The notes under the pieces were generated by a model. It had not been told where the DNA came from, made no database searches, and saw only the letters and a list, made by a program, of their open reading frames with translations. The position numbers were made by a program, and so were the translations under genes. From assembly GCA_016184345.1 (NCBI GenBank), contig JACPCV010000005.1:97017-161016 (forward strand): a stretch of 64,000 nt of DNA, written 5' to 3'. This DNA comes from Candidatus Woesearchaeota archaeon (GTDB lineage Archaea; Nanobdellota; Nanobdellia; Woesearchaeales; UBA10216). Shown piece after piece: positions 10,838-47,248 of this stretch; the first letter of the stretch is position 1; each line of letters starts with the position of its first letter.

Positions 10838-10913
10838 ACTTCATTACCTCCTCAATTTCTTTTTTTGTGTTGCTGTCAGCACAAGCTGCTATAAATACTT
10901 AACGCTTGGTAAG

Positions 10914-10987
10914 CGCCCTCTCCGGGATTTGAACCCGGATTAAAAGCTCCGGAAGCTCTTGTCATGTCCGGATTAGACCAAGAGGGC
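10914..10987 (-). tRNA. tRNA-Arg (CCG), intron-less
   Basis: The reverse complement folds as GCCCTCT/AGAGGGC acceptor, anticodon arm AGAGC-TTCCGGA-GCTTT, and T-arm CCGGG-TTCAAAT-CCCGG. Discriminator G; no encoded CCA. Confidence 0.85.
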
Positions 10988-11001: not shown

Positions 11002-11115
11002 AAACGCCCCCACTGGGAATCCGCGCCCTGATGGGCTTGGAACCCAGTGGATGGATGGCTAAACGCCCCCACTGGGTGACTTCGCCTTTCGGCTCAGGAC
11101 CCATTGGTGGCTAAA
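11002..11115 (-). repeat. Two extra tandem copies of the tRNA-Arg 3' end (T-stem plus acceptor plus trailer)
   Basis: aaacgcccccactggg occurs at 11002-11017, 11061-11076 and 11113-11128; the last copy belongs to the tRNA at 11116-11248. Copies 2 and 3 have T-stem-like helices closing non-tRNA loops. Confidence 0.8.
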
Positions 11116-11248
11116 CGCCCCCACTGGGAATTGAACCCAGATCTCAGCCTGCCTGCTGACGGATACTCGCCGTCGTTTTTGGGTTGAACCTTTTTCGCAA
11201 AAAAGGGTCATTCGCGGGGCCGCATCTTGTCCGTTGGACCATAGGGGC
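11116..11248 (-). tRNA. tRNA-Arg (GCG, tentative) with a ~61-nt anticodon-loop intron
   Basis: Acceptor GCCCCTA/TGGGGGC. Anticodon stem CGGCC/GGCTG with loop CCGCGAA (C33 is atypical). Intron about 11150-11210, starting TGACCCTTTTTT. T-arm CTGGG-TTCAATT-CCCAG. Confidence 0.65.
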
Positions 11249-11250
11249 AT

Positions 11251-11340
11251 GACCTTCTTAGGAAGAATGTCACCGGAGAGGTGACATCCTTCGGCTACCC
11301 GCCGAAGTAAGGCCAATCAAGAAGCCTTCTCTTAAGCGGT
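11251..11340. repeat. Array of four short hairpins directly upstream of the tRNA-Arg(GCG) 5' end
   Basis: ttctt/aagaa, gtcac/gtgac, cttcggc/gccgaag and agaag/cttct stems. On the tRNA strand the segment begins GCCCCTT (11362), which mimics the tRNA 5' acceptor strand. Confidence 0.6.
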
Positions 11341-11368
11341 CGAACGCATTGTGTTGAAGGGGCGTTTA

Positions 11369-11469
11369 AATATAGAGGACTTTGAATAACCCCTATTTAT
11401 CACTTTTGTTCAAAGTCCTCTAAGACAACTTTGACACTTTACAGATAGATAATCAAAGTTGTCTATATT
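11369..11469. repeat. ~100-bp double-hairpin repeat 'X', copy 1
   Basis: Near-identical to the reverse complement of 30779-30920, except for a 43-nt insertion in that copy and a different second loop. Stems are agaggactttgaa/ttcaaagtcctct and agacaactttga/tcaaagttgtct. Confidence 0.9.
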
Positions 11470-11537
11470 GCTGTGGCGGCAGCCGCGGAGTGGCGGCGGC
11501 AAAAGCTTATTAACTATTGCCTTTTCCTGACACTTCC

Positions 11538-12278
11538 ATGCTGCAGCGTCTACAAAAAATACTCTCGGCAGCGGGGATCGCTTCCAGGAGGAAGAGCGAG
11601 GAGCTAATCCTGCAGGGCAGGGTTCTGGTCAACGGGAAGCCAGCCATCCTGGGGCAGAAGGCTGATGCTGAGAAAGATGCCATCACTGTTGACAACGTCA
11701 GGATAGGCGTGGAGAAGAAAAAATACATCCTTCTTTACAAGCCCTCAGGCTACGTCACAACAACGGCAGACAAGTTCGCGAAAAGAAAGGTTACAGACCT
11801 TATAAACATGCCTGAAAGAGTTTACCCGGTAGGCAGGCTTGACGTTGATGCTGAAGGCCTGCTCATCCTGACAAATGACGGCGAGTTCGCAAACCGGCTT
11901 ATGCACCCAAGGTTTGAAGTTGAGAAGACATACATGGTCAAGCTGCGGCAGAAGCTCCATGATGATGACATTGAGCAGATAAGGCGGGGGGTGTTTGTTG
12001 ACGGAAGAAGGGTTGCTGCGAGGATAAAGCTGCTCCAGAAGGATATAGCTGAAGTTACCGTGCACGAGGGCAGGCACAAGATAGTGAAGAGGCTCTTCAA
12101 GCAACTTGGCAACTATGTGCTTAGGATAACGCGGACAAGAATAGGCAGCGTTGGAATCGGAAAGCTCAAGCCAGGCATGTGGAGGGAGCTGAGCAGGGAA
12201 GAAGTGGCTGCGCTAAGCGAAGAATCCGGAAAACACGCTGGTTCCAATCTTCATGGCCACAAAGTACACGACCTGTGA
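11538..12278 (+). CDS. RsuA/RluB-family pseudouridine synthase with S4 domain
   Basis: LQKILSAAGIASRRKSEELILQGRVLVNG (S4 domain) and GRLDVDAEGLLILTNDG (catalytic Asp motif). Confidence 0.85.
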   Translation: MLQRLQKILSAAGIASRRKSEELILQGRVLVNGKPAILGQKADAEKDAITVDNVRIGVEKKKYILLYKPSGYVTTTADKFAKRKVTDLINMPERVYPVGRLDVDAEGLLILTNDGEFANRLMHPRFEVEKTYMVKLRQKLHDDDIEQIRRGVFVDGRRVAARIKLLQKDIAEVTVHEGRHKIVKRLFKQLGNYVLRITRTRIGSVGIGKLKPGMWRELSREEVAALSEESGKHAGSNLHGHKVHDL

Positions 12279-36068: not shown

Positions 36069-37151
36069 TTAAGGTCTTCTTATCAACCTTCCTACACCAC
36101 TAAAATTAAACCTGCTAGCTAAGCCCTTAAGCCCTCTTCTGGCTGCCTGAGCCTGCCTCAGCCCAGCAACCTGCCTCTTGATGCCGATTGAGTTCAGCGT
36201 CCCTGTTTTAGTTTCTCCCTTCAAATCATTTAGCCGTCTTTGAATAAGCTGCTGCACTTTGTTAACGTCATTCCCCTCCAACGCCCTAAGCCCTGCCTGT
36301 ATTTTGTCAATGTCTGAGATGGCAGCTTCAAGCTGAAGTATTGCGTGTGGGATGTCATTTGCACGCAGGTATGCCTCTGCCTTTGTGAAATAATTGGTAA
36401 AAGCCCTCTCGAGTTGGCCTACAGCAACCGCGTGCGTTTCCAAAGTGCTCTTGACAGTGGCGACCTGCTCGTTTATTCTCCTCTTTGCGTCCTGCTCAAA
36501 CTTGCCCTTCACCTGTGCCCATTTCGCGTTGTTAGGTCCCTTGCCTGCCCAGCCAGAAGCTTTCCTCGCAACAATCTCTTCTGAAATCTCTTTCCTGGTG
36601 CCTGCAAACATTTTGTTAATGTTATTATTTTCAGCAATCTCAAGCTGTTCCAGCTGCCCGATTAGCCCCCTCAATTCCTGCTCCAAGTTACTAATCCTGC
36701 TTGAATACTGCACAATCTCGCCAACCTTCAGCCTCACTTCTTCAACAAGGTCTGGACTCTCTCTGCCGGCTTTAACCATTTTTCGTAAAGCATCAATCAT
36801 CCTCTTACAAGCGTTTTTGATTTCGTCCCAAAGCTTGCTCTCATTGAATGTCAGGCTCCGAATCATGCGAATATCAATGAGCTCCCTGGCTTCCTCCGCA
36901 AGCTCAGTAGCGCGCTCTTTTGCTTCAGTACCTTCCTCGGCAAGCGCAGCCTGGTCCTCAGCTGTTGCAACGGCAGCACTGCCTGGTCTGCTGCCGCCTC
37001 TGCCACCAAAGAGATTGCCGCCCCAACTGCCGCCGTCTCCACCCTGGTTGCTGTCTCCTCTAAATACGCCAATTACTTCTTTAATTGCTAGGATAACAAG
37101 GGCAACTTCCAAGAATCCAACAAAATCAGCTACAGCATCAAACAGTACCAT
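36069..37151 (-). CDS. Membrane-anchored Gly-rich/coiled-coil protein (FHA operon gene 3)
   Basis: The ATG at 37151 lies 1 nt after the upstream stop. N-terminal TM (FVGFLEVALVILAI), GGDGGSWGGNLFGGRGGSRPG, then a long helical region. The track's longer N-terminal extension overlaps the upstream gene. Confidence 0.6.
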   Translation of the reverse strand: MVLFDAVADFVGFLEVALVILAIKEVIGVFRGDSNQGGDGGSWGGNLFGGRGGSRPGSAAVATAEDQAALAEEGTEAKERATELAEEARELIDIRMIRSLTFNESKLWDEIKNACKRMIDALRKMVKAGRESPDLVEEVRLKVGEIVQYSSRISNLEQELRGLIGQLEQLEIAENNNINKMFAGTRKEISEEIVARKASGWAGKGPNNAKWAQVKGKFEQDAKRRINEQVATVKSTLETHAVAVGQLERAFTNYFTKAEAYLRANDIPHAILQLEAAISDIDKIQAGLRALEGNDVNKVQQLIQRRLNDLKGETKTGTLNSIGIKRQVAGLRQAQAARRGLKGLASRFNFSGVGRLIRRP

Positions 37152-37152
37152 C

Positions 37153-37869
37153 TTACTTTTTCGCCCCGAATCTTTGTAACTTTCTGGCGGCTGTGGCCGC
37201 GAGTTTAATGCCTCTTTTAGATATCTGCTCCAAACTGAACCTGTCACTAAAACGTATAAAGTATACTGTGGTGAGAATGCCAAAACCACGGGGAGTTCCC
37301 CCGCCACCGGTAAACTTGTCTGCCACAAAACCGCTAATGTGGTCAAGTATGTACAAAAGAAGTATGATAAAAACAAGTCTCGTAAGTGCTAGAATCCTTC
37401 CTGGCGGTACCATAGTTGGCAAGCCACCGTAAAGAAATGCGAGGAGTCCAATGGCAAGAAAACCAACCAAAGCCGCAGCCACAACAGTGCTGTAGCTTTC
37501 ACCAATGCCTATAAGTAATTGAGGGCTTATAAAAATACTGCCCACTGTGGCGAAAACCATTGCAATGGCCATGGAAGCTCCGCCTGCGAACATGCCTGCT
37601 CCTGCAGCACCACCTCCTAGTCTTCTAAGCGCTGTCCACACCACAGTAAAGACAACAATCCAGACCATTATTCTCATAAATCCAGCAAGCTTTGCAGCAT
37701 CATTATCCAAAAAGTTAAGTTGTGCTATGCTCAGTAAGCTATCAGAAGTCCTCTTCCAAAAATTCTCTCTCTGCGCAGCTACAGTCGCAGAAAGGGAGAG
37801 GAACATTACCGCAGCTATTACGACAAGTAGTAAGACTCTCTTATTGCCCTCATTCATTAATCTACACAC
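37153..37869 (-). CDS. Polytopic membrane protein (FHA operon gene 2)
   Basis: 238 aa with about 6 hydrophobic segments. Confidence 0.6.
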   Translation of the reverse strand: MCRLMNEGNKRVLLLVVIAAVMFLSLSATVAAQRENFWKRTSDSLLSIAQLNFLDNDAAKLAGFMRIMVWIVVFTVVWTALRRLGGGAAGAGMFAGGASMAIAMVFATVGSIFISPQLLIGIGESYSTVVAAALVGFLAIGLLAFLYGGLPTMVPPGRILALTRLVFIILLLYILDHISGFVADKFTGGGGTPRGFGILTTVYFIRFSDRFSLEQISKRGIKLAATAARKLQRFGAKK

Positions 37870-37953
37870 CTTTTTGGACTACTATAACTTAAACTATAAC
37901 CACTTTCTGATGTCTCTATATTTAAATATTTCTTCCAAGAAGGAGATTGCCAC

Positions 37954-38613
37954 CTACCGGATGTAAACTGCCAGCCTTGGCACATTTGGCTTCCCATCAG
38001 GTCCGGTGATTGCTGCTGGAGGGCGTAATGTGTTCTTGCCAGCCGCACCTGTTGCCGCAGCAACTATCCCAGACTGCGTGACAATGTCGTAATTAAAGCC
38101 GGGTAAAATAGTATCTCCATTTCTTAACAGCAGCCCATGCGGAGATATGTGGGCGTGAATGTTATAAACTTCTGCTTCATTGGTAACTGCGCTTCTGGTA
38201 AGGTAACCTGAAATGTCGTTTACGCCTCCAACATTTGTAACCTGGAAGCGCAACACAGGCAAGCCAGCAAATGCGCCACTCTGCCTGCGTTCAATCACCG
38301 TTCCATATCGGGAATTATCCTCATAGATGACAGTCCCGTCAGGAAGAAAAGACACTACTCCGTGGACACGAGAAACCCTTGCAAGTCTTGGAGGATCAAA
38401 ATTCCCGTCTAAGTTCAGGTAATCTGCAAGAACTGGCGCTCCTGCAAATGCGCCAAGAACAATACGACTGCCTCTGGTTTCAGTACTGGCAAGCACTTTT
38501 TTTGTTTCAGTATCCACTATCTCAACGAGCCTTCGCCTTGCCGATTCACTTGGAGGAACCGGCTTGACCAATTCCTGTGAAGGTTCTACACTCAAAAAAT
38601 CCCAAATCCCCAT
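37954..38613 (-). CDS. FHA-domain-like protein (FHA operon gene 1)
   Basis: RIVLGAF...LARVSRVHGVVSFLPDGTVIYEDNSRYGTVIE fits the FHA core (G.R..SR.Ha...DG...D.S.NGT). tatttaaat lies 24 nt upstream of the ATG. Confidence 0.55.
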   Translation of the reverse strand: MGIWDFLSVEPSQELVKPVPPSESARRRLVEIVDTETKKVLASTETRGSRIVLGAFAGAPVLADYLNLDGNFDPPRLARVSRVHGVVSFLPDGTVIYEDNSRYGTVIERRQSGAFAGLPVLRFQVTNVGGVNDISGYLTRSAVTNEAEVYNIHAHISPHGLLLRNGDTILPGFNYDIVTQSGIVAAATGAAGKNTLRPPAAITGPDGKPNVPRLAVYIR

Positions 38614-38690: not shown

Positions 38691-39131
38691 CTAAAACCCC
38701 TGCGTTCCCCCGTATATTAGGAGGAAGCCTGTAACTATGTACAGCGTGTTGATGACGACTGCTGCAAGCTCGGGCAGGGTGAAGCCTATCACGCCAAAGC
38801 TGTGAAGCAGCGGGATAAGGCCGACTGCCAGCAGCACAAGCGCCATGACGAACGTTGCCATCCTTGCCATCTGGGCAAAGCCCATCATTGCCATGTTCTC
38901 TGAGATGGCGTTCCAGAGCAGGAAAACTGCCCCAAAAACGCTCAGGGCGTACAGGATAGTTTGCGGAAGCACAGGTATGGTAAAGCCGATTACTTTCATG
39001 CTGTTAAGAAGAGGGATGCCGCCAAAAGCGAGGAACACCAGCCCCGTGACAAGGCTTATCGGCTTTCTGGGGCCGCCCATCATCATGCCCTGGCCTTTTT
39101 TGCCCAGAAGCAACAGCATTAAGTGAACCAT
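38691..39131 (-). CDS. Small 4-TM membrane protein with internal duplication
   Basis: GGIPLLNSMKVIGFTIPVLP and VGLIPLLHSFGVIGFTLPEL are repeated halves. Confidence 0.55.
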   Translation of the reverse strand: MVHLMLLLLGKKGQGMMMGGPRKPISLVTGLVFLAFGGIPLLNSMKVIGFTIPVLPQTILYALSVFGAVFLLWNAISENMAMMGFAQMARMATFVMALVLLAVGLIPLLHSFGVIGFTLPELAAVVINTLYIVTGFLLIYGGTQGF

Positions 39132-39198: not shown

Positions 39199-39600
39199 TT
39201 AAATGTTTCGCAGCAATTCCGCAGCTGTGACTATTTTTGCGCTTCTGAACTTTTTAAGCACTAGCAGGTCTTTATCGCCAGATATTATGTAATCAGCATT
39301 ACCCTCTAAAGCTGCCTCTAACAGCTTATTATCATCAGGGTCTCTGCATACGCTTCTTACCTTCTCTTTTGGCATAACAACCTCAGCTGCTTCGATAAGC
39401 GCGTTTACGAAGTCGTTAACCTCTTCCTCACTAAAGCCGAACTTAGGCCTTAAAGCTACCTCTTTGAATTCGTCAAGAACATCTACGGAAGTGATAATAA
39501 TAATTTCTCTCACAAAACATTTCTCAATCAGCCGGTACTCGTTCCCTTCCACTATAAGAGCAGAAATTAGGACGTTTGTGTCAGGAACTACCCGCAGCAT
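39199..39600 (-). CDS. vapC: PIN-domain toxin (VapC-like)
   Basis: MLRVVPDTNVLISALI...IISGDKDLL. Confidence 0.8.
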   Translation of the reverse strand: MLRVVPDTNVLISALIVEGNEYRLIEKCFVREIIIITSVDVLDEFKEVALRPKFGFSEEEVNDFVNALIEAAEVVMPKEKVRSVCRDPDDNKLLEAALEGNADYIISGDKDLLVLKKFRSAKIVTAAELLRNI

Positions 39601-39859
39601 GCCTTGCCTTCCTCACAGCCTTAATCTCCCTTGCAATGTCTTCCCTAGTTATGCCGCGCTCCTTGAAGCGCTTTGTAGCCTCGGCTGCTAATTCGCGAAA
39701 AACCTCAATCGGCTCTCTTTTCTTTCTTATCAAGATTGTGTCGTCTGAGTAAAAGAAGTCAAGAACTTGCCCCTCTTCCAGTTCCAGGGCCTCTCTTATG
39801 GAGGCGGGTAGCGTTATCTGACCTTGCCTTGTTATCTTATAAGTTCCTGCGGTCTTCAT
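39581..39859 (-). CDS. vapB: AbrB/SpoVT-type antitoxin (VapB-like)
   Basis: YKITRQGQITLPASIREALELEEGQVLDF. Overlaps vapC by 20 nt. tatttaaa lies 24 nt upstream. Confidence 0.75.
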   Translation of the reverse strand: MKTAGTYKITRQGQITLPASIREALELEEGQVLDFFYSDDTILIRKKREPIEVFRELAAEATKRFKERGITREDIAREIKAVRKARHAAGSS

Positions 39860-40053
39860 AATAGTATTTGTAGTAGAGATAGTATTTAAACTTTTCTGTT
39901 TTATTGCGCCATTGAAAAGTTGCCGTTGTTCGGCCAGCTTGACACTACCCGTTGCAGCTGTTCGGCAGCAGTGCAGCCTCCTTAGCGACCAAAAGCTTTA
40001 TATTCTTACATTTCTTACAAATAAGAAGAATAGACGATACGGAGGTGGTTGAG

Positions 40054-40302
40054 ATGGAGCTGCTTGAGATGAAGAGTGCCAAGATAACAAAGAAAGGGCA
40101 GATTGCCATTCCCAAAAGTGTAAGAAAGCTTGAAGGATTTAGTGAAGGCTCAAAGGTGGCAATTCTTGCGTTTAAGGACAGAGTTGAACTGAAGCCTATG
40201 AAGCAAATCAGCAGAATCGCGCTTACAGCCCTGGCAAGCGAAAAAACGCTTGCGAAAGACTGGGATACTAAAGAGGAAGATGACGCATGGAAAAACTTGT
40301 GA
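40054..40302 (+). CDS. mazE: AbrB/MazE-type antitoxin
   Basis: ggaggtg RBS at 40041-40047. KITKKGQIAIPKSVRKLEGFSEGSKVAI. Confidence 0.7.
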   Translation: MELLEMKSAKITKKGQIAIPKSVRKLEGFSEGSKVAILAFKDRVELKPMKQISRIALTALASEKTLAKDWDTKEEDDAWKNL

Positions 40303-40619
40303 AGGGAGACATAGTCGTTGTGCCGTTTCCTTTTTCCGACCTGAGCGCTTCAAAGAAAAGACCTGCACTTGTGATTGCATCTTTAACAGGAAATGACCTC
40401 ATTCTCTGCCAGATAACAAGCAAAGCAAAATTTGACGGCTATTCGATAAGCCTTGCCGGTGCAGATTTTGAAAAAGGAGGGCTGAATGTGCCAAGCAGGA
40501 TAAGGCCGAATCGGTTGTTTACAGCTGACAACTCAATAATCCTGTACAAAGCAGGCTCACTTCGGCAGGGGAAAATCAATGAGGTTGAAGAAGCACTGGT
40601 CAGGATAATCCGGGGTTAA
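40287..40619 (+). CDS. mazF: MazF/PemK-family toxin
   Basis: GDIVVVPFPFSDLSASKKRPALVI...RPNRLFT. Confidence 0.85.
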   Translation: MEKLVKGDIVVVPFPFSDLSASKKRPALVIASLTGNDLILCQITSKAKFDGYSISLAGADFEKGGLNVPSRIRPNRLFTADNSIILYKAGSLRQGKINEVEEALVRIIRG

Positions 40620-41449
40620 TGAGGTTAGGTATGCGCTTCATTACTGCAACTGATGTTAAGCTGAAAAAGAGGAAGCCTGACAGCCACAAAGGCGAGAACG
40701 GCCGCGTTTTGGTCGTTGCAGGCTCAATTGACTACGTTGGCGCTGCTTACCTGGCAGGGATGGCTGCTTTCCGGTCTGGTGTTGACGCTGTTGTCGTTGC
40801 AGCCCCTGAGAAGGTTGCGTGGGCAATCAACTGCCTTTCCCCTGATTTCATAACGAAGAAGTTCAGGGGCGATTTCTTCACAGCTGCGACAGCGAAGGAA
40901 ATAGTTGAGATGAGCAAAAAGTTTGACGTCACATTAATTGGCAACGGCGTAGGGAAAAGTATTGAAACGCTAAAATTTGCTGCAGCCGTATGCAGGAAAA
41001 TAGAAAGCACTAAAGTGATTGATGCCGATGCCATCTCCGCAGTGAGAATGCAGGAAGTGCAAAACGCCATATTCACGCCGCACCATGCAGAATATGACCT
41101 GCTGCTGAGAAATAGCCACTGTAGTGAAAAGCGACTGCAAACGGTTATTGGCACGAATGTCATACTGCTCAAAGGCAGGATAGATGCGATAATTGCAAAG
41201 GGAAAAACAGCTTACAACAGGACAGGAAACGCCGGCATGACGGTCGGGGGAACTGGCGACGTACTTGCAGGGCTTACTGCAGGCATTTTGGCGCAGGAAA
41301 AGGACCTGTTCAAGGCAGCAGCTGCGGCGGCTTACGTTAACGGGAAAGCAGGAGACCTGCTGCTGAGGGAATATGGCTATGGGTTCACTGCCAGTGATTT
41401 GCTCCAGGAACTGCCTGCTGTGCTGAAGCAGCTGTGGGGCATCGAATAA
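40619..41449 (+). CDS. nnrD: ADP-dependent NAD(P)H-hydrate dehydratase (YjeF C-terminal type)
   Basis: HKGENGRVLVVAGS..YVGAAYLA, TPHHAEY, GGTGDVLAGL. Confidence 0.85.
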   Translation: MRLGMRFITATDVKLKKRKPDSHKGENGRVLVVAGSIDYVGAAYLAGMAAFRSGVDAVVVAAPEKVAWAINCLSPDFITKKFRGDFFTAATAKEIVEMSKKFDVTLIGNGVGKSIETLKFAAAVCRKIESTKVIDADAISAVRMQEVQNAIFTPHHAEYDLLLRNSHCSEKRLQTVIGTNVILLKGRIDAIIAKGKTAYNRTGNAGMTVGGTGDVLAGLTAGILAQEKDLFKAAAAAAYVNGKAGDLLLREYGYGFTASDLLQELPAVLKQLWGIE

Positions 41450-41508
41450 GCACAATTTTACTTAAAATTTTAGTAAAATTTATAAATACTAAGGTTCTTA
41501 GTAATGTT

Positions 41509-41757
41509 ATGAGTGAAACGACTGTCGTAACACGGGGAAGTCAGATAACCCTGACAAAAGCCATAAGGGAAAAAACCGGCATAAGGGAGGGAGATACGGT
41601 TACACTAAACGTGGCTGGGGGAAATGTAATCGTTGCCAAAAGGGACCCGTCTGTGTTTGACAATCTTAAAAGATTCCTGCCTGATAATTTTGAAGAAATC
41701 CTAAAAAAGACGCGAACAGACGACAGGAAACGGTTAAAGAGGCTTGGCATTATTTAA
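41509..41757 (+). CDS. vapB: AbrB/SpoVT-type antitoxin (VapB-like)
   Basis: VVTRGSQITLTKAIREKTGIREGDTVTL. tttataaata lies about 25 nt upstream. Confidence 0.7.
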   Translation: MSETTVVTRGSQITLTKAIREKTGIREGDTVTLNVAGGNVIVAKRDPSVFDNLKRFLPDNFEEILKKTRTDDRKRLKRLGII

Positions 41758-41760
41758 ACA

Positions 41761-41913
41761 ACAGAATTCCACTCATCTATGATGAGTGGGGTTCTGTGTG
41801 CTCAAAAACCACCGGTTCGTGGAATTCTGAGCGTCAAAACAGCATCGGCAGCAGCCGATGCGTATCGACCCGAGGTCGATAAATGCCACCGGTCTCTGAC
41901 CGGTGGTTTTTGA
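41761..41913. repeat. Multi-hairpin element inserted between vapB and vapC
   Basis: Hairpins at 41769-41789, 41842-41861 (gcatcggc/gccgatgc, as at 8213-8232), 41863-41881 and 41887-41907. A 14-bp long-range stem pairs 41804-41817 with 41900-41913. Confidence 0.85.
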
Positions 41914-41926
41914 CAGGCGATAATTC

Positions 41927-42355
41927 ATGAAGATACTCTTTGACACCAGCGCACTGATAGAGCTGGAAAGGCAAAATCAGGAAGCTATTGTGCTTGTCAA
42001 AGGCTTAATCACAGGCAAAGAAGAAATTGTGATAAGCACCGTAACTATTTCTGAAGTATTGTTAGGCGTTTATTTCCAGAAAGCTTATGAAAAAATTGTA
42101 GAGGCCAAAAAGCTCCTATCCCAGTTTAAATGGATACCTTTGGATGAAAACATAGCCGATATGGCGGCCCAGTATGAGGCGTTGCTGCTGAACATTGGGA
42201 ACGAAATTGAATTCAAGGATGTTGCAATAGCCGCAACCTTTGCAGCCACGAAATCAGATTTTTTAATTACACAAAACAAGAGGCATTTTCAAATTTTGCC
42301 AGATATTGGAAACAGTGCCAAAACGATTGCAGAATTTAGCAAAATTTATCGGTAA
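41927..42355 (+). CDS. vapC: PIN-domain toxin (VapC-like)
   Basis: MKILFDTSALIELER...DVAIAATF...LITQNKRHF. Confidence 0.8.
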   Translation: MKILFDTSALIELERQNQEAIVLVKGLITGKEEIVISTVTISEVLLGVYFQKAYEKIVEAKKLLSQFKWIPLDENIADMAAQYEALLLNIGNEIEFKDVAIAATFAATKSDFLITQNKRHFQILPDIGNSAKTIAEFSKIYR

Positions 42356-42450
42356 ACATTTATATATCAGTGTATCTTTTAGTATACTAGAGATAGTGTG
42401 AAGACTACTCCGCGCTTATCAATGGCGCATCAAAAAAGGTGTCATTCAAT

Positions 42451-43977
42451 ATGGCAGCAGAGCATAATCCGGTTGAGCTTCTGAAGAAATACAATTTTGG
42501 AGAGCAGGAAGAAGCTGAGCTTGTCAGCGGGGTGAAGGAAAAGACAAATTACCCGAGCCCTGCTTACAGGTACAGGGTTGTGGTTGAGGCAGTGCACGCC
42601 TACATTGAGGAGGCTTACTACTGGACACTTGACGAGCTTGAGATGAGCTGGAGCTTCAACAAGTTTGACAAGATAACAGACATCCACGCAGCTTCAGAGC
42701 AGTCAGCTTTCTTCGGAGTCTCAGAGCAGCGCATTGGCCTGCAGCAGGACAAGGCGGCTCAGTACCTACGCGGGATAAGTGAGATGCTCAAGGCGCTTTT
42801 CCAGATAGTAAGGGAGCTCAGGGTGATAGATGAGCGCACTGGCTACTACAAGCAAACCTTCAACAGGAAAAACGAGGAAGAGGCAGTCGGCTCTGACATC
42901 ACGCTCAAAGGCGTGTGGGTGGACCAGGTTGAAGGCGGCACAAAGAACGCCGCATCGGTTTACGGCCTTGCGCAAACAGTCGGATTCTCTGTCCTGCCTG
43001 ACCTCTTCTTCAGAGTAAGGGCAAACGACATTGGGGGAGACAAGGCAAAGCCTGAGGAATATGATGCGTTTGTGAAGCGCGTAATTGAGGACGTTGACAA
43101 GAAAGTAAAGGGCATTGAAGGCTTTAACGAAAAAGTCAAGGAAGTGCTCACCAGAAAACTGGTGCAGTACTACATGTGGAAACTGCGCACATTCAAGGAG
43201 CTTGACGCGAGAAGGAAGTTCACCATAAAATACCTCAGGCAGCACTATGACACCATTAAGCTGTACATGGGCTGGATAAAGCCTTACCTCAGGAACATAC
43301 TCAAGCTGCAGATGGCGGAAAAGCTCATCCAGGGAGAAAAGGCAAGGGAGCTGATTACGGCATTTGAAGGCTCGCTAATTGAAGTTGAAGTCCTGTCGTA
43401 CAAGCACAGGGAAGGAAGGAAATTCCACCCGTGCGTGCTGCTGAATATTTTCTACAGGACCTCGCCGTCAATGGTGTACGTGCAGGAAGGCTACCAGAGG
43501 GGGCCTTCGCACACAGGCAAGTTTGACATGACACTGCGCGGCTACGTATGGAGTGATGAGCAGATTACGAACTACAAGCGCATGCGCGAGGAAGAGGACC
43601 TGCACATGCTCAGCATGATAAATGAGGACATTAAAGCATCAATGGACGCATTAGGGGATGAGCTTAAGCAGTACCTCAGGGAGGCAGGCGAGATTTTCCC
43701 TGAAGACGAGCAGAAGAGGGAAGAGCTGAAGACGTCAAACAGCCCGCTTGAGCCGTTCATTGGGGTGTTTGGCGGCCTGAAGGACATAGCGTCAGCATTC
43801 GGAGGTGCAAAGCCTGCCGGAGCTCCAAGCAAGCAGAGCATCAAGAAGCAACTCACCGGCGGAAAATCAGATGTCCAGCTTGACATCCAAATCACAGAAG
43901 CCAGGGAGGAGCTGAAAAGGGCAATCTGGCAGACATACAAGAACTACAAGAAGCTCCACGGCATGCTTACATGGTAA
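42451..43977 (+). CDS. Uncharacterised 508-aa protein (operon gene 1)
   Basis: Long ORF with a clean ATG. Largely helical and charged, with no motif I recognise. Followed 35 nt later by gene 2. Confidence 0.6.
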   Translation: MAAEHNPVELLKKYNFGEQEEAELVSGVKEKTNYPSPAYRYRVVVEAVHAYIEEAYYWTLDELEMSWSFNKFDKITDIHAASEQSAFFGVSEQRIGLQQDKAAQYLRGISEMLKALFQIVRELRVIDERTGYYKQTFNRKNEEEAVGSDITLKGVWVDQVEGGTKNAASVYGLAQTVGFSVLPDLFFRVRANDIGGDKAKPEEYDAFVKRVIEDVDKKVKGIEGFNEKVKEVLTRKLVQYYMWKLRTFKELDARRKFTIKYLRQHYDTIKLYMGWIKPYLRNILKLQMAEKLIQGEKARELITAFEGSLIEVEVLSYKHREGRKFHPCVLLNIFYRTSPSMVYVQEGYQRGPSHTGKFDMTLRGYVWSDEQITNYKRMREEEDLHMLSMINEDIKASMDALGDELKQYLREAGEIFPEDEQKREELKTSNSPLEPFIGVFGGLKDIASAFGGAKPAGAPSKQSIKKQLTGGKSDVQLDIQITEAREELKRAIWQTYKNYKKLHGMLTW

Positions 43978-44012
43978 CAAGGTTTTTATTCGGCAAGGCA
44001 TAGACACAGGTC

Positions 44013-44684
44013 ATGGTTACTGTTGACGAGCTCAAGAAGCTAAGCCCTGAAGAAAGAATCAAGCGGCTGAAAGAGCTTGAGGAGGAGCGCAAGAAGGAGA
44101 TAGCAGAAGCGGAAGAGCTAATCAAGGAAACAGCAAAGGAGCTTGCCGAAGCCGAGGAAAAAAGGAGGATACCGATTCCAGAGGCAAGGGCAACCGACCT
44201 GTCCACGCTTGACACGCTTGAGGAAAAACAGCTCGTCGCAACACACCACCTCCTTGCAGCGGAAACAACAGCAACCCACCAGCCGCAAAGCCCGCAGCAG
44301 CCAAAAAGCCTGGAGGAAGTCGCAGCAGAGGAAGCGCCTGCAGCAGGCCAACAAACGCAGCATGACCTTTTAGGAAAAGGTCAATCAAAATTACAAAAGC
44401 CCGAATACGCCATAGGCACGGAGCAACAGAGGCCAGCGTTCGGGGAATACCTTTCAAAATCGCAGCAGACAGTAACAGGAGGAACTCCCCCGGGCAGCAG
44501 CGAGCTGGAAAAGATTACGGAAATTTACAAGGACAGGGCAGTAACCGGAGCCGAGACAGGAGATGCCCAGCAAAAATACTTTGGCACGCAACAGCACGTA
44601 ACCGGAGGATATGAGCTGAGGAAAAGAGAGGAAGAGGACAGAAGGGAAAGAACAGAGTACAGAAGAAGGGGAGGGCCTGCTTAA
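44013..44684 (+). CDS. Uncharacterised 223-aa coiled-coil/low-complexity protein (operon gene 2)
   Basis: The N-terminus ELKKLSPEERIKRLKELEEERKKEIAEAEELIKE is coiled-coil, followed by a Q/T/E-rich tail. Its stop abuts the ATG of gene 3. Confidence 0.55.
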   Translation: MVTVDELKKLSPEERIKRLKELEEERKKEIAEAEELIKETAKELAEAEEKRRIPIPEARATDLSTLDTLEEKQLVATHHLLAAETTATHQPQSPQQPKSLEEVAAEEAPAAGQQTQHDLLGKGQSKLQKPEYAIGTEQQRPAFGEYLSKSQQTVTGGTPPGSSELEKITEIYKDRAVTGAETGDAQQKYFGTQQHVTGGYELRKREEEDRRERTEYRRRGGPA

Positions 44685-46643
44685 ATGATATTCAACCAGT
44701 CTTACTACACTGCAATGGACAGGGGCTATTACATGCCGCTGCAGGAAGGCCAGGGCCTGCCAGGAGAAAGCCCTGAAGCTATTCCCGAGATTGGAGTCAG
44801 CCCCAAGGACATTGGCGTTTCAGCCCATCCGGCACAGGACCAGCTCCAGCAGGTAAAGGCAAGGATATTCCAGGGCGCATCAAGGGTTGAGCTCGGCTTC
44901 TTCGGCAGGGGCAAAGGCAGCTTCCAGGGAGGGAACACAACCCCTGAAATGTACGGCAAGGAAGAAAGGATTGACATGAGGGAGCTTGCAAAGGTAAACA
45001 AGGTCAAGCTGACAACGCACGCAACAACAGGCGCAGGCAGCCTTGCAGGCATGGGTCAGCAGGGCTTTGATGAGCACGTAAGGGAGCAGGCCCTGCACGA
45101 GATAGAAAGGGCAGTTGACTTCGCAGCGGATGTAACGAGAGGCGGGGCAATTGTTGTGCACGCAAACGAGTTCCCAAGAGCCATAATGCCTGAGTGGGGA
45201 AAAGAAGGATTCTCAGCCTACCCTGAAGAGGAGAAAAGGGCAGTGTTCCACCTCGTTGACGACAGGAGCGGCCAGATGATGCCTGTCAGGAAGAACGACG
45301 TTTTCTATGAGCCAAGGTATAAGGACTACCCTGGTGACTCAACAGCCTGGCTAGGCATCCGCGGCCAAAGGATTCCCAAGAATACCCGTGACACAAATCT
45401 GCTGTTTGAACGCGTGCCGCAAGTAGAGTACGATCAGAACGGCGTGCCAAAATTCACCCCCAATAAAGTGACTTGGGATGAGATTGAGCGCAGGGCTGCG
45501 GAACTCAAGAAGGTTGACCCCACAGCAACACCGGAAAAACTTTTTTACCAAATTCAGATTGAGAACCAGATTGCCCAGGCAAGAGGCAGCTCGCTGTTCT
45601 ATGGGCTGCGCTACAAGGAATGGGAGGAAGATATTAAAAAGTTGCAAGCAGCATATGGATTTTACAAAAAGCTGGACGAATCCCTTCCTGAAAGCGAAAA
45701 ATGGAAGCTAAAGCAGTCACTACAATCAGGGGTATTCCTGCCGCCTGAAGTTGTCAATCCGGTCGAGTACCTCAAAGACAGGCTGGAGCAGATGGAAAAC
45801 CAGCTAAGGCAGGTTCACCAGTCCTCAGCAGCGGCAGACGCCCAGGCAGAACAGCAAAGAGAGAACCTTCTGCACCTTCATCCGATCAAAGAATATGCCC
45901 TCGGCAAAACAGCAGACACGGTAGCCAGGGCAGCCATATACGCCTGGGACAAGGAAAAGCACCTCCGCCAGGACGTTACCAACGGCGAGAAGATGGAAAA
46001 GCCGCTGTTCGTTGCTGTAGAGAATTACTTCCCTGAAGTTTACGGCGGGCATCCTGACGAGATTAAGGAGATAGTGACAACAGCAAGGAAGGCAATGGTT
46101 GATGAGATAATGAGAAACGGCGAAAAGTACGGCGTCCATGACAAAAGCGAGGCAGAAACGCTGGCGAAGGAGCACATCAAGGCAACATGGGACACAGGGC
46201 ATGCGTTCATCTGGAAAAAATACTTCAAAGGCAGCGATGAGGAGTTCAAGAGCTGGTACTTACAGAAGGCAAAAGAGTGGAAAGAGGAAGGCATAATGGG
46301 GCACGCGCACATCTCAGACAACTTCGGCTGGGAGGACGAGCACGTCATACCCGGGCAGGGCATCGCCCCAATCAAGGAATTTGTCTCATTAATACGGGAC
46401 AAGGTTGACAAAGGGGAGATTGACCTGATAGTCGAGCCGGCACACCAGGACTACCGAGCACTCCTGGGAGGCTGGAGGCTGTTTGGAAGCTCAATCTACG
46501 GCACTGCATTCGGGAAGAGGGACAGCTGGGTAGACTTGGAGAGAAGCTACTTCGGCCGCACAGCGCCGCCATACTTCCTCTACGGAGAAACAGCGCCAGA
46601 CCCGGAATCATGGACATTATGGAGTGGGCAAAGGCTGGAGTAA
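44685..46643 (+). CDS. AP-endonuclease-2 / xylose-isomerase-like TIM-barrel protein with a ~270-aa helical insertion (operon gene 3)
   Basis: Ordered metal-site motifs: KLTTHATT, AIVVHANEF, LFVAVENYF, ATWDTGHAFIW, GHAHISDNFGWEDEHVIPGQGIAPI, DLIVEP. The pattern is as in the Endo IV / sugar isomerase fold. Confidence 0.65.
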   Translation: MIFNQSYYTAMDRGYYMPLQEGQGLPGESPEAIPEIGVSPKDIGVSAHPAQDQLQQVKARIFQGASRVELGFFGRGKGSFQGGNTTPEMYGKEERIDMRELAKVNKVKLTTHATTGAGSLAGMGQQGFDEHVREQALHEIERAVDFAADVTRGGAIVVHANEFPRAIMPEWGKEGFSAYPEEEKRAVFHLVDDRSGQMMPVRKNDVFYEPRYKDYPGDSTAWLGIRGQRIPKNTRDTNLLFERVPQVEYDQNGVPKFTPNKVTWDEIERRAAELKKVDPTATPEKLFYQIQIENQIAQARGSSLFYGLRYKEWEEDIKKLQAAYGFYKKLDESLPESEKWKLKQSLQSGVFLPPEVVNPVEYLKDRLEQMENQLRQVHQSSAAADAQAEQQRENLLHLHPIKEYALGKTADTVARAAIYAWDKEKHLRQDVTNGEKMEKPLFVAVENYFPEVYGGHPDEIKEIVTTARKAMVDEIMRNGEKYGVHDKSEAETLAKEHIKATWDTGHAFIWKKYFKGSDEEFKSWYLQKAKEWKEEGIMGHAHISDNFGWEDEHVIPGQGIAPIKEFVSLIRDKVDKGEIDLIVEPAHQDYRALLGGWRLFGSSIYGTAFGKRDSWVDLERSYFGRTAPPYFLYGETAPDPESWTLWSGQRLE

Positions 46644-46652
46644 TAATTGATG

Positions 46653-47045
46653 CTACTTAACAAACTCCACGTTTTCTAGCCCTTCAAACTCCCTGTCGCC
46701 AGTAAGGAATTTTACTTTTAATTTCCTTGCCAAAACGTATCCGATGCAGTCAACGAAAGAAATATTACTTCCCTTTATCTTCGCCTTAATTTCCGCCCTT
46801 AAGGAAGCAGATTCCTTAATGGTTTCATCGCTGATTCCGACGCAAAAATCCTTGAACTCATTGAAAGCTATCTCTGCCGCGTTCCTTCCGTGCTTTACAA
46901 GATAACTGTAGTAAAGTTCCATGAGGTTCAGTTTTGTAGTCGCAATTCCTGACAGATTGCTGTAAGGTTCATAGGCTTCGTCGCCCTCTTTTATCTTGTG
47001 CAAGGCATATGTATCGAAGAAATAATTGCTCAATCTTTTCCCCAC
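46653..47045 (-). CDS. vapC: PIN-domain toxin
   Basis: YFFDTYALHKI...FVDCIGYVLA...FLTGDREF. Confidence 0.75.
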   Translation of the reverse strand: MGKRLSNYFFDTYALHKIKEGDEAYEPYSNLSGIATTKLNLMELYYSYLVKHGRNAAEIAFNEFKDFCVGISDETIKESASLRAEIKAKIKGSNISFVDCIGYVLARKLKVKFLTGDREFEGLENVEFVK

Positions 47046-47248
47046 CCTTCCCTAGCCCTGTCCTTGAATTTTTGGCTGTTTTCACCAGTCTTCAGGCTAC
47101 CAAAAATTTTGGATAGGTCTGCCTTCTTAATGACAATTGGAAGCGACAGGACGTCACCTTCCTTTATGTTTTGCATAGCGACAAGCTCCTTTGGCAGGAC
47201 TACGCCAAGAGAGTTTCCCCATTTTCTTACTACCGTTTCAGTTTCCAT
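47030..47248 (-). CDS. AbrB/SpoVT (MazE-like) antitoxin
   Basis: VVRKWGNSLGVVLPKELVAMQNIKEGDVL. Overlaps the PIN gene by 16 nt. Confidence 0.75.
   Translation of the reverse strand: METETVVRKWGNSLGVVLPKELVAMQNIKEGDVLSLPIVIKKADLSKIFGSLKTGENSQKFKDRAREGWGKD

Follow-up and report, generated by a model that had tools for sequence, protein, structure and literature searches.

The closest described relatives of the protein considered here are barrel proteins of the endonuclease IV (Endo IV) family, represented by Escherichia coli Nfo and by APN1 of yeast and Babesia, the ketose 3-epimerases (D-tagatose and D-psicose 3-epimerases, FrlC and UlaE), and MJ1311 of Methanocaldococcus jannaschii (PDB entry 3wqo), whose entry carries the name "D-tagatose 3-epimerase-like protein", function unknown, and which is listed as the predicted Endo IV homologue of that organism (PMC2770678, Table 1). 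We describe a three-gene operon that lies in a 64,000-nucleotide stretch of a Candidatus Woesearchaeota archaeon genome (contig JACPCV010000005.1, positions 97,017 to 161,016; this whole stretch is called the window below, and coordinates are in its own numbering). Its genes, here called 1, 2 and 3, form a vertically inherited, translationally coupled module that is specific to Woesearchaeota, and gene 3 encodes a barrel of this kind, interrupted by some 270 inserted residues, which represents a new variation on a known fold class. The Woesearchaeota (here the order Woesearchaeales, among the DPANN archaea) are abundant, uncultivated organisms with small genomes and a conserved proteome much of which is of unknown function. 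We read the operon as encoding a lineage-specific cytoplasmic complex whose catalytic component would be a metallo-phosphoesterase of the Endo IV/MJ1311 class, with nucleic acid as its likeliest substrate, and we give this reading a probability of roughly 0.4; the operon looks like a housekeeping module and not like a mobile defence system. Searches of the literature turned up no relevant account of this operon or of Endo IV in Woesearchaeota, and the database labels of the gene 1 and gene 3 products are "hypothetical protein" and "sugar phosphate isomerase/epimerase", respectively.

Like gene 3, MJ1311 is archaeal, and in their aligned segments the two proteins share the motifs VVVH, FDIGHAN and HVHxxDNxGyxDEHxxxGxG, which hold six of the nine Endo IV-type positions; the significant part of the alignment spans no more than about 50 residues. 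MJ1311 has 293 amino acids (aa); its barrel is not interrupted after strand 4, it lacks the conserved terminal tails of gene 3, and we know of no partners for it that resemble gene 1 or gene 2. Nfo has the barrel fold and all nine ligand residue types in common with gene 3, but it acts alone, whereas gene 3 is encoded with two conserved partners. The ketose 3-epimerases are the best structural matches and share a Glu-Asp-His-Glu core with gene 3; they measure about 290 aa and come from operons for sugar utilisation, and gene 3 has no such neighbourhood. An Endo IV-type multinuclear site, hitherto found in stand-alone enzymes of about 290 aa, would also occur here in an elaborated form with partner proteins, and to identify the substrate would close a gap in what is known of DPANN core biology and could help settle the role of the archaeal MJ1311-class barrels.

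The gene 3 barrel and its metal-ligand positions

Gene 3 (44685-46643, plus strand) is an open reading frame (ORF) of 652 aa, and its product is the only one of the three with a Pfam match, which is to PF01261 (AP_endonuc_2, xylose isomerase-like TIM barrel) over residues 461-573, at 48.4 bits against a cutoff of 31.1 bits. An AlphaFold2 model built from 45 homologues (predicted local distance difference test (pLDDT) 83, predicted TM-score (pTM) 0.79) has the eight strands of a (beta/alpha)8 barrel at residues 43-46, 67-71, 108-112, 154-159, 441-446, 498-503, 538-544 and 580-584. When residues 169-435 are deleted the PF01261 match runs unbroken over positions 13-219 of the 249 in the profile (51 bits), and barrels spliced in this way match it in 14 of the 14 family members tried, so the barrel is indeed interrupted, by some 270 inserted residues. 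The insertion accounts for the distance between the ligand histidine of strand 4 and the ligand glutamate of strand 5 (H159 and E446), which is 287 residues in gene 3 and 223-343 (median 292) among 161 homologues, compared with 36 in E. coli Nfo. An earlier reading of the window from its letters alone (the sequence-only reading) had assigned gene 3 to the Endo IV/xylose isomerase fold with a long insertion, and PF01261, AlphaFold2 and Foldseek all agree with it; the N-terminal extension of about 60 aa that it described is shorter, at about 40 residues, with pLDDT below 50 over residues 1-34 and the first barrel strand beginning at 43.

The gene 3 protein can be divided into five parts. The N-terminal tail (residues 1-40; 44685..44804) carries a conserved YY.AMDRGY motif, whose Y7 is kept in 147 of the 161 homologues, followed by a linker modelled at low confidence. 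The model, the motifs and the conservation pattern place strands 1 to 4, with H112 and H159, in residues 41-165 (44805..45179), and the model secondary structure and spacing statistics place the insertion after strand 4, at residues ~166-436 (45180..45992). The insertion is modelled at a pLDDT of about 90, with a beta-rich subdomain at ~187-262 and long helices at 283-333, 359-396 and 401-425, which together probably make up an antiparallel arm tipped by a small beta-hairpin. TIM-barrel active sites sit at the C-terminal ends of the strands, and since it follows strand 4 the insertion is on the active-site face of the barrel. Strands 5 to 8 lie in residues 437-600 (45993..46484), which carry E446, D503, H506, H542, D545, D551, H553 and E584. 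The C-terminal tail (residues 601-652 and the stop codon; 46485..46643) has the conserved sequence SYFGRTAPPYFLYGE.APDPE.W.LWSG..LE, is modelled at low confidence and ends in a Glu that is found in 158 of 161 homologues; it is likely a docking segment.

A homologue search with the 271-aa insertion alone gave two fragments from 661 candidates even though full-length homologues at 40-87% identity number more than 100, and is thus uninformative on whether the insertion occurs elsewhere. A match of the insertion to Cas8a1/Csx13 (E = 0.005-0.017) scores 13.8 bits against a cutoff of 80.85 bits and, being so far under it, was taken as probable helical or compositional noise. Homology of gene 1 to the insertion was ruled out (hhalign probability 0.07).

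The E. coli nfo gene sequence was retrieved and its product compared with gene 3 motif by motif. Nfo H69 (ILPHDSY) corresponds to gene 3 H112 (LTTHATT), H109 (LNFHPGS) to H159 (IVVHANE), E145 (AVIENTA) to E446 (VAVENYF), D179 and H182 (CIDTCHAF) to D503 and H506 (TWDTGHAF), H216 (GMHLND) to H542 (HAHISDN), D229 and H231 (VDRHHSLGEG) to D551 and H553 (EDEHVIPGQG), and E261 (LILET) to E584 (LIVEP). From the Nfo structure literature we take these nine Nfo residues to be the ligands of three zinc ions. All nine positions have the same residue type in gene 3 and lie at the ends of equivalent model strands. Among 161 distinct full-length homologues eight of the nine are 100% invariant, and the ninth, D551, varies only between D (152) and H (9). 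The correspondence is based on the order of the motifs, their places on the strands and their invariance because the profile alignment with Nfo is not significant. The ordered Endo IV motifs named in the sequence-only reading (TTHAT, VVHANE, VENY, WDTGHAF, the stretch from H542 to D551/H553, which reads HISDNFGWEDEHVIPGQG, and VEP) are all present and make up a complete ligand set. Judged by its sequence, gene 3 has an Endo IV-type ligand set yet lies outside the Nfo family in the hidden Markov model sense.

In the reading we favour, gene 3 would be the catalytic subunit, a (beta/alpha)8 barrel that may bind up to three metal ions and would hydrolyse a phosphodiester or phosphomonoester bond. 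Its insertion, with the beta subdomain and the long helical arm on the catalytic face, could serve as a lid, as a substrate-selecting arm or as a partner-binding arm, and the gene 1 and gene 2 products would be non-enzymatic partners that dock on its conserved N- and C-terminal tails. The likeliest substrates would be abasic or blocked 3' DNA ends, or RNA ends with a 3'-phosphate or cyclic phosphate.

Several observations weigh against this. An hhalign comparison of the spliced barrel with Nfo falls short of significance (probability 0.1), gene 3 matches no Nfo model of NCBIfam at E ≤ 1, and the best of its weak NCBIfam matches is fructoselysine 3-epimerase. The H..D.H..PGEG motif is also found in E. 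coli FrlC, so that some of the ligand pattern is shared with proteins other than Endo IV. The DNA-recognition loop residues of Endo IV are not recognisably conserved in gene 3; Tyr72 and Leu73, for example, which follow H69 in Nfo, have no obvious counterparts after H112. MJ1311 reportedly keeps the nine residues and lacks a DNA-binding groove. All three operon proteins are acidic to neutral, with isoelectric points (pI) of 7.1 for gene 1, 5.3 for gene 2 and 5.6 for gene 3, and that the three interact physically we infer only from genetics. The RNA-related neighbours described below occur at a minority of the loci only, with wider spacing than the operon genes themselves.

Some of the same observations bear on a different proposal, that gene 3 is a sugar or sugar-phosphate epimerase or isomerase of the ketose 3-epimerase type, using a Glu-Asp-His-Glu subset of its ligands in an envelope or salvage carbohydrate role with genes 1 and 2 as scaffolds. 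The single-metal Glu-Asp-His-Glu set of those enzymes is present in gene 3 (E446, D503, H542 and E584), and the best Foldseek matches of its model in the PDB are D-tagatose and D-psicose 3-epimerases (probability 1.0, target TM-score 0.60-0.65), with the Endo IV family protein APN1 at a probability of 0.8-0.87. By sequence, MJ1311 is the only solved relative (E = 1e-7 to 2e-9), and a PDB profile search with gene 3 gave no Endo IV chains at E ≤ 10. A global hhalign alignment with E. coli FrlC has an E value of 3.6e-5, and fructoselysine 3-epimerase is the best NCBIfam match in 14 of 14 spliced members (best E = 1.4e-7), but that model is matched at 20-23 bits, far under its 305-bit cutoff, and over only ~38 residues. 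Against an epimerase stand also the five further invariant ligands (H112, H159, H506, D551 and H553) that complete the Endo IV trinuclear set; FrlC shares H..D.H..PGEG with gene 3 but lacks some of these, with Tyr where strand 3 has His in gene 3, and without the His that follows the Asp by three residues. Nor would an epimerase have an obvious need for two conserved non-enzymatic partners and a 270-residue arm. A phosphoglucomutase and a sugar nucleotidyltransferase are encoded nearby in the window, on the opposite strand, but no sugar-catabolic or transporter genes recur beside the operon in the 84 loci surveyed (see below). The sequence-only reading would have been refuted had gene 3 lain in sugar-metabolic neighbourhoods and apart from genes 1 and 2; neither is seen. 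We regard an epimerase as unlikely; it keeps some weight because the closest folds are epimerases and because, to our knowledge, no nuclease activity has been demonstrated for the MJ1311 class.

Operon layout and the products of genes 1 and 2

Gene 1 (42451-43977, plus strand) is an ORF of 508 aa from its ATG. A GTG at 42439 would give a protein of 512 aa, and the start was set at the ATG because the homologue consensus begins there. Gene 2 (44013-44684, plus strand) is an ORF of 223 aa that is separated from gene 1 by 35 nucleotides (nt) and from gene 3 by none, its TAA (44682-44684) being followed directly by the gene 3 ATG. These coordinates and spacings bear out the three tightly coupled same-strand genes of the sequence-only reading. 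A TATA-like box, TTTATATA (42360..42367, plus strand), found by inspection of the sequence about 85 nt 5' of the gene 1 ATG, is a candidate archaeal promoter, and a Shine-Dalgarno-like GGTG (~42438-42441, plus strand) lies about 10 nt 5' of gene 1. No stretch hydrophobic enough for a transmembrane helix is present in any of the three proteins. ARAGORN and Rfam scans of the 64-kb window found no RNA or tRNA element within or adjoining the operon; the sole RNA gene that they found in the window is a tRNA-Arg(CCG) at 10913-10987 on the minus strand.

Gene 1 encodes a soluble protein with a conserved C-terminus (...HGMLTW) and many invariant polar residues. A word-indexed search found 1232 homologues and an exhaustive one 683 clusters at 50% identity, all of ~450-560 aa; none of the 1232 carries a Pfam domain, and 41 members that were scanned have no consistent family. 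The AlphaFold2 model (pLDDT 71, pTM 0.51) is alpha+beta, with two very long helices (89-137 and 227-294) and two beta-sheets (19-78 and 309-368). Foldseek found no significant match to it in the PDB or in the viral structure library BFVD (best E = 0.07 and 0.003, respectively, with TM-scores of 0.1-0.2), and a PDB profile search was empty. Foldseek matches to helical bundles and coiled coils were dismissed as noise. Gene 1 is an uncharacterised family without detectable relatives, and with at least 683 clusters at 50% identity it is a large one to have neither a Pfam model nor a detectable fold relative. Its conservation exceeds that of gene 3, with identities that are on average about 10 points higher. 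Two of its highly conserved segments, 79-93 and 343-354, are modelled at low confidence, as are the gene 3 tails, and we take such conserved yet low-confidence segments to be possible sites of intermolecular contact.

Gene 2 encodes an acidic protein. Two alignments, one with 6 homologues and one with 53, show a conserved, charged stretch of ~70 residues at the N-terminus (L.P.ER..rL.e.E...), beyond which both sequence and length vary; the homologues have 143-245 aa. From this conservation and the composition, the N-terminal part would be helical or coiled-coil and the tail disordered. The tail had been described as Q-rich, and Q is indeed frequent there, although only moderately so (18 in 163 residues). 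Several Tyr stand at fixed alignment positions of the tail in the 53 homologues, amid unconserved surroundings. Scans with Pfam, NCBIfam and PADLOC models gave no family match for gene 2, and that neither gene 1 nor gene 2 has a recognisable motif, as the sequence-only reading had it, agrees with their matching no known family.

The arrangement of a barrel enzyme with two accompanying proteins recalls the multinuclear iron oxidases (MNIOs) of the DUF692 family (MbnB/MbnC type). MNIOs belong to the same barrel superfamily, have a comparable multinuclear His/Asp/Glu site and function together with a precursor and a partner protein; the partner is non-enzymatic and is encoded with the enzyme and the small protein. 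On this model the enzyme would modify the gene 2 protein, with gene 1 as its recognition partner, and the conserved leader-like N-terminal helix of gene 2, with spaced conserved Tyr in a variable tail, could be accommodated. Neither gene 3 nor gene 1 matches PF05114/DUF692 or DUF2063, however, and there is no sequence-family match between the two systems; at 143-245 aa gene 2 is far larger than the precursor of a ribosomally synthesised and post-translationally modified peptide, and it has no Cys. In 208 complete genomes the Nanobdellota, including Woesearchaeales, lack aerobic respiration (bioRxiv 10.64898/2026.05.13.725050), and O2-dependent chemistry of the MNIO kind is less likely in such anaerobic hosts. 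We consider an MNIO-like function extremely improbable.

Distribution and linkage of the three genes

When one genome per GTDB species was scanned, relatives of gene 1 were found in 539 species representatives. The best 80 of these 539 carriers are Woesearchaeota/Nanoarchaeota, bar apparently mislabelled records, and the distant gene 1 members that bear names are also Woesearchaeota. Gene 3 homologues range from 87% down to ~35% identity and from ~560 to 700 aa, and nearly all are labelled Candidatus Woesearchaeota. Many GTDB or NCBI records of operon carriers have odd titles ("uncultured Methanosarcinales archaeon", "Candidatus Aminicenantes bacterium", "Nitrospiraceae bacterium" and "bacterium"; among them loci L007, L009, L011, L022 and others, L046, and proteins P0053 and P0216), and these are probably default labels or mis-binned contigs. 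No copy of gene 1 was found on viral contigs or plasmids, and none of gene 3 in phages.

The three genes co-occur well beyond the window. Gene 3 lies downstream of gene 1 on the same strand in 46 of the 49 loci that have at least 3.5 kb downstream of gene 1. The order is 1-2-3 in 22 of the 46 and 1-3-2 in 8; in 7 gene 3 follows gene 1 at less than 150 nt, and in the other 9 the gap is larger and gene 2 was not detected. Across loci the median gap is 10 nt between genes 1 and 2 and 2 nt between genes 2 and 3. The identities of gene 1 and gene 3 homologues to the window copies are strongly correlated (Pearson r = 0.94, n = 59), and a distant gene 1 (P0390) sits in a cluster made up of gene 1, a 144-aa gene and gene 3. 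The operon takes up about 4.2 kb of genomes of roughly 1 Mb and is maintained with tight translational coupling in hundreds of species; it is conserved DPANN "dark matter", whose function can be approached by inference.

The 1-3-2 order belongs to one subclade (L047, L049, L052, L057, L069, L074, L075, L077, L080 and L084), and gene 3 abuts gene 1, with no gene 2 detected by tblastn, in L031, L036, L044, L064, L071 and L078. Three loci, L042, L050 and L079, have 6 kb downstream of gene 1 without gene 3, which may either lie elsewhere in these genomes or have been lost; L042 retains a gene 2-like ORF, followed by the gene for ribosomal protein L10e on the opposite strand.

Chromosomal surroundings

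The neighbours of the operon were surveyed in 84 loci, of which 52 have room upstream and 37 downstream. Recurrent neighbours on the same strand are, upstream, an NAD(P)HX dehydratase (26/52), a Kef-type antiporter (24/52), a CRM/YhbY RNA-binding protein (10/52) and NFACT-R (8/52) and, downstream, a Pol-beta-type nucleotidyltransferase (12/37) and an S-adenosylmethionine (SAM) methyltransferase (8/37). The median distance from the YhbY or antiporter gene to gene 1 is 58-124 nt and that from gene 3 to the nucleotidyltransferase 112 nt, looser than the spacing within the operon. The window itself has the NAD(P)HX dehydratase upstream and, downstream, a class I lysyl-tRNA synthetase (LysRS), a geranylgeranyl-reductase-like flavoprotein, a phosphoglucomutase and a nucleotidyltransferase. 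Most of this backbone is syntenic in relatives such as L001 (a 1.14-Mb contig), L013, L016 and L017, which have the dehydratase upstream and LysRS, phosphoglucomutase and nucleotidyltransferase downstream. The Kef-type antiporter (Na_H_Exchanger plus TrkA_N) is usually situated between the dehydratase and gene 1; the window has none, and a MazE-like/PIN pair is in its place (40619-42450, compared with 3238-5725 of L001). In distant Woesearchaeota (L030-L084; for example L031, L070 and L078, and L090 at 11072-11902) NFACT-R and CRM/YhbY often precede the operon, and a DOT1-like SAM methyltransferase and a ~270-aa NTP_transf_2/Pol-beta nucleotidyltransferase often follow it on the same strand.

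These RNA-binding, nucleotidyltransferase and methyltransferase neighbours lend slight support to a nucleic-acid substrate and may point to an RNA-related role. One form that this could take, narrower than the phosphoesterase reading as a whole, is RNA-end healing or ribosome-associated RNA repair, in which gene 3 would strip cleaved tRNA or rRNA of its 3'-phosphate or 2',3'-cyclic phosphate, the end would be rebuilt or protected by the Pol-beta nucleotidyltransferase and the methyltransferase encoded next to the operon, and genes 1 and 2 would target the enzyme. The position of CRM/YhbY directly 5' of gene 1, the recurrence of NFACT-R and the SAM methyltransferase on the same strand and the NTP_transf_2/Pol-beta gene 3' of gene 3, in the distant locus L090 as elsewhere, are in keeping with this, and the window genome is rich in PIN and MazF RNase toxins. 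Each such neighbour is nevertheless found at only 15-32% of the loci with room for it and none in the window, the spacing is looser (median 112-124 nt), synteny inside one order can last without a functional link, and Pfam and NCBIfam scans found no RNA-binding domain in genes 1-3. We think both the end-stripping role of gene 3 and the assignment of the remaining steps to its neighbours and partners decidedly unlikely in this specific form.

A fuller version of the phosphoesterase reading can be offered only tentatively, as a suggestion more doubtful than probable: the operon would encode an undescribed Woesearchaeota machine, composed of an Endo IV-like trinuclear phosphoesterase with its own helical arm, a new-fold gene 1 protein and a variable, probably disordered gene 2 adaptor, that carries out essential nucleic-acid maintenance, either repair of DNA abasic sites and 3' ends or RNA-end healing linked to the nucleotidyltransferase and methyltransferase, and replaces or supplements the canonical enzymes of these reduced genomes.

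Four type II toxin-antitoxin (TA) pairs flank the operon, all within ~8 kb: a PIN and MazE/AbrB-like pair (39199-39859, minus strand), a MazE and MazF/PemK pair (39952-40619, plus strand), a MazE-like and PIN pair (41434-42355, plus strand) and a PIN and MazE-like pair (46653-47248, minus strand). The sequence-only reading had remarked on these surroundings as a TA-rich island and had proposed a system in which a nuclease effector, gene 3, acts with two structural or sensor partners, genes 1 and 2, by implication against viruses or plasmids. The pairs are there, and an architecture of one nuclease-like component with two proteins of no known family could fit such a system, but the island does not hold as a frame: no TA pairs like those of the window are annotated at the syntenic loci of L001, L013, L016 and L017, so they are local insertions around an old locus and not evidence of a defence island. 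Defence is likewise at odds with a conserved chromosomal position in hundreds of species, with the correlated divergence of genes 1 and 3 and with the lack of gene 1 copies on viral contigs or plasmids and of gene 3 copies in phages; in PADLOC scans the only match was that of Cas8a to the helical insertion of gene 3 (E = 0.005), with nothing for genes 1 and 2, and PHROG matches were weak only, with nothing meaningful among them. We therefore disfavour the defence proposal, which we judge very improbable, and return to a housekeeping phosphoesterase complex as the better account. The locus is a caution for the mining of defence islands, since TA modules can pile up around an old housekeeping operon.

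Beyond the TA pairs upstream of the operon, a 146-aa membrane protein (38691-39131) is a member of a recurring family, and three successive ORFs of 435, 238 and 219 aa on the minus strand (36069-38613) have no Pfam family. The 435-aa ORF groups with a family of ~430-aa proteins (median 432 aa), of which the member inspected, in L023, is a Pro-rich membrane protein. The families of the 435-aa ORF and the 146-aa protein (f7 and f11) recur upstream of the operon in close relatives.

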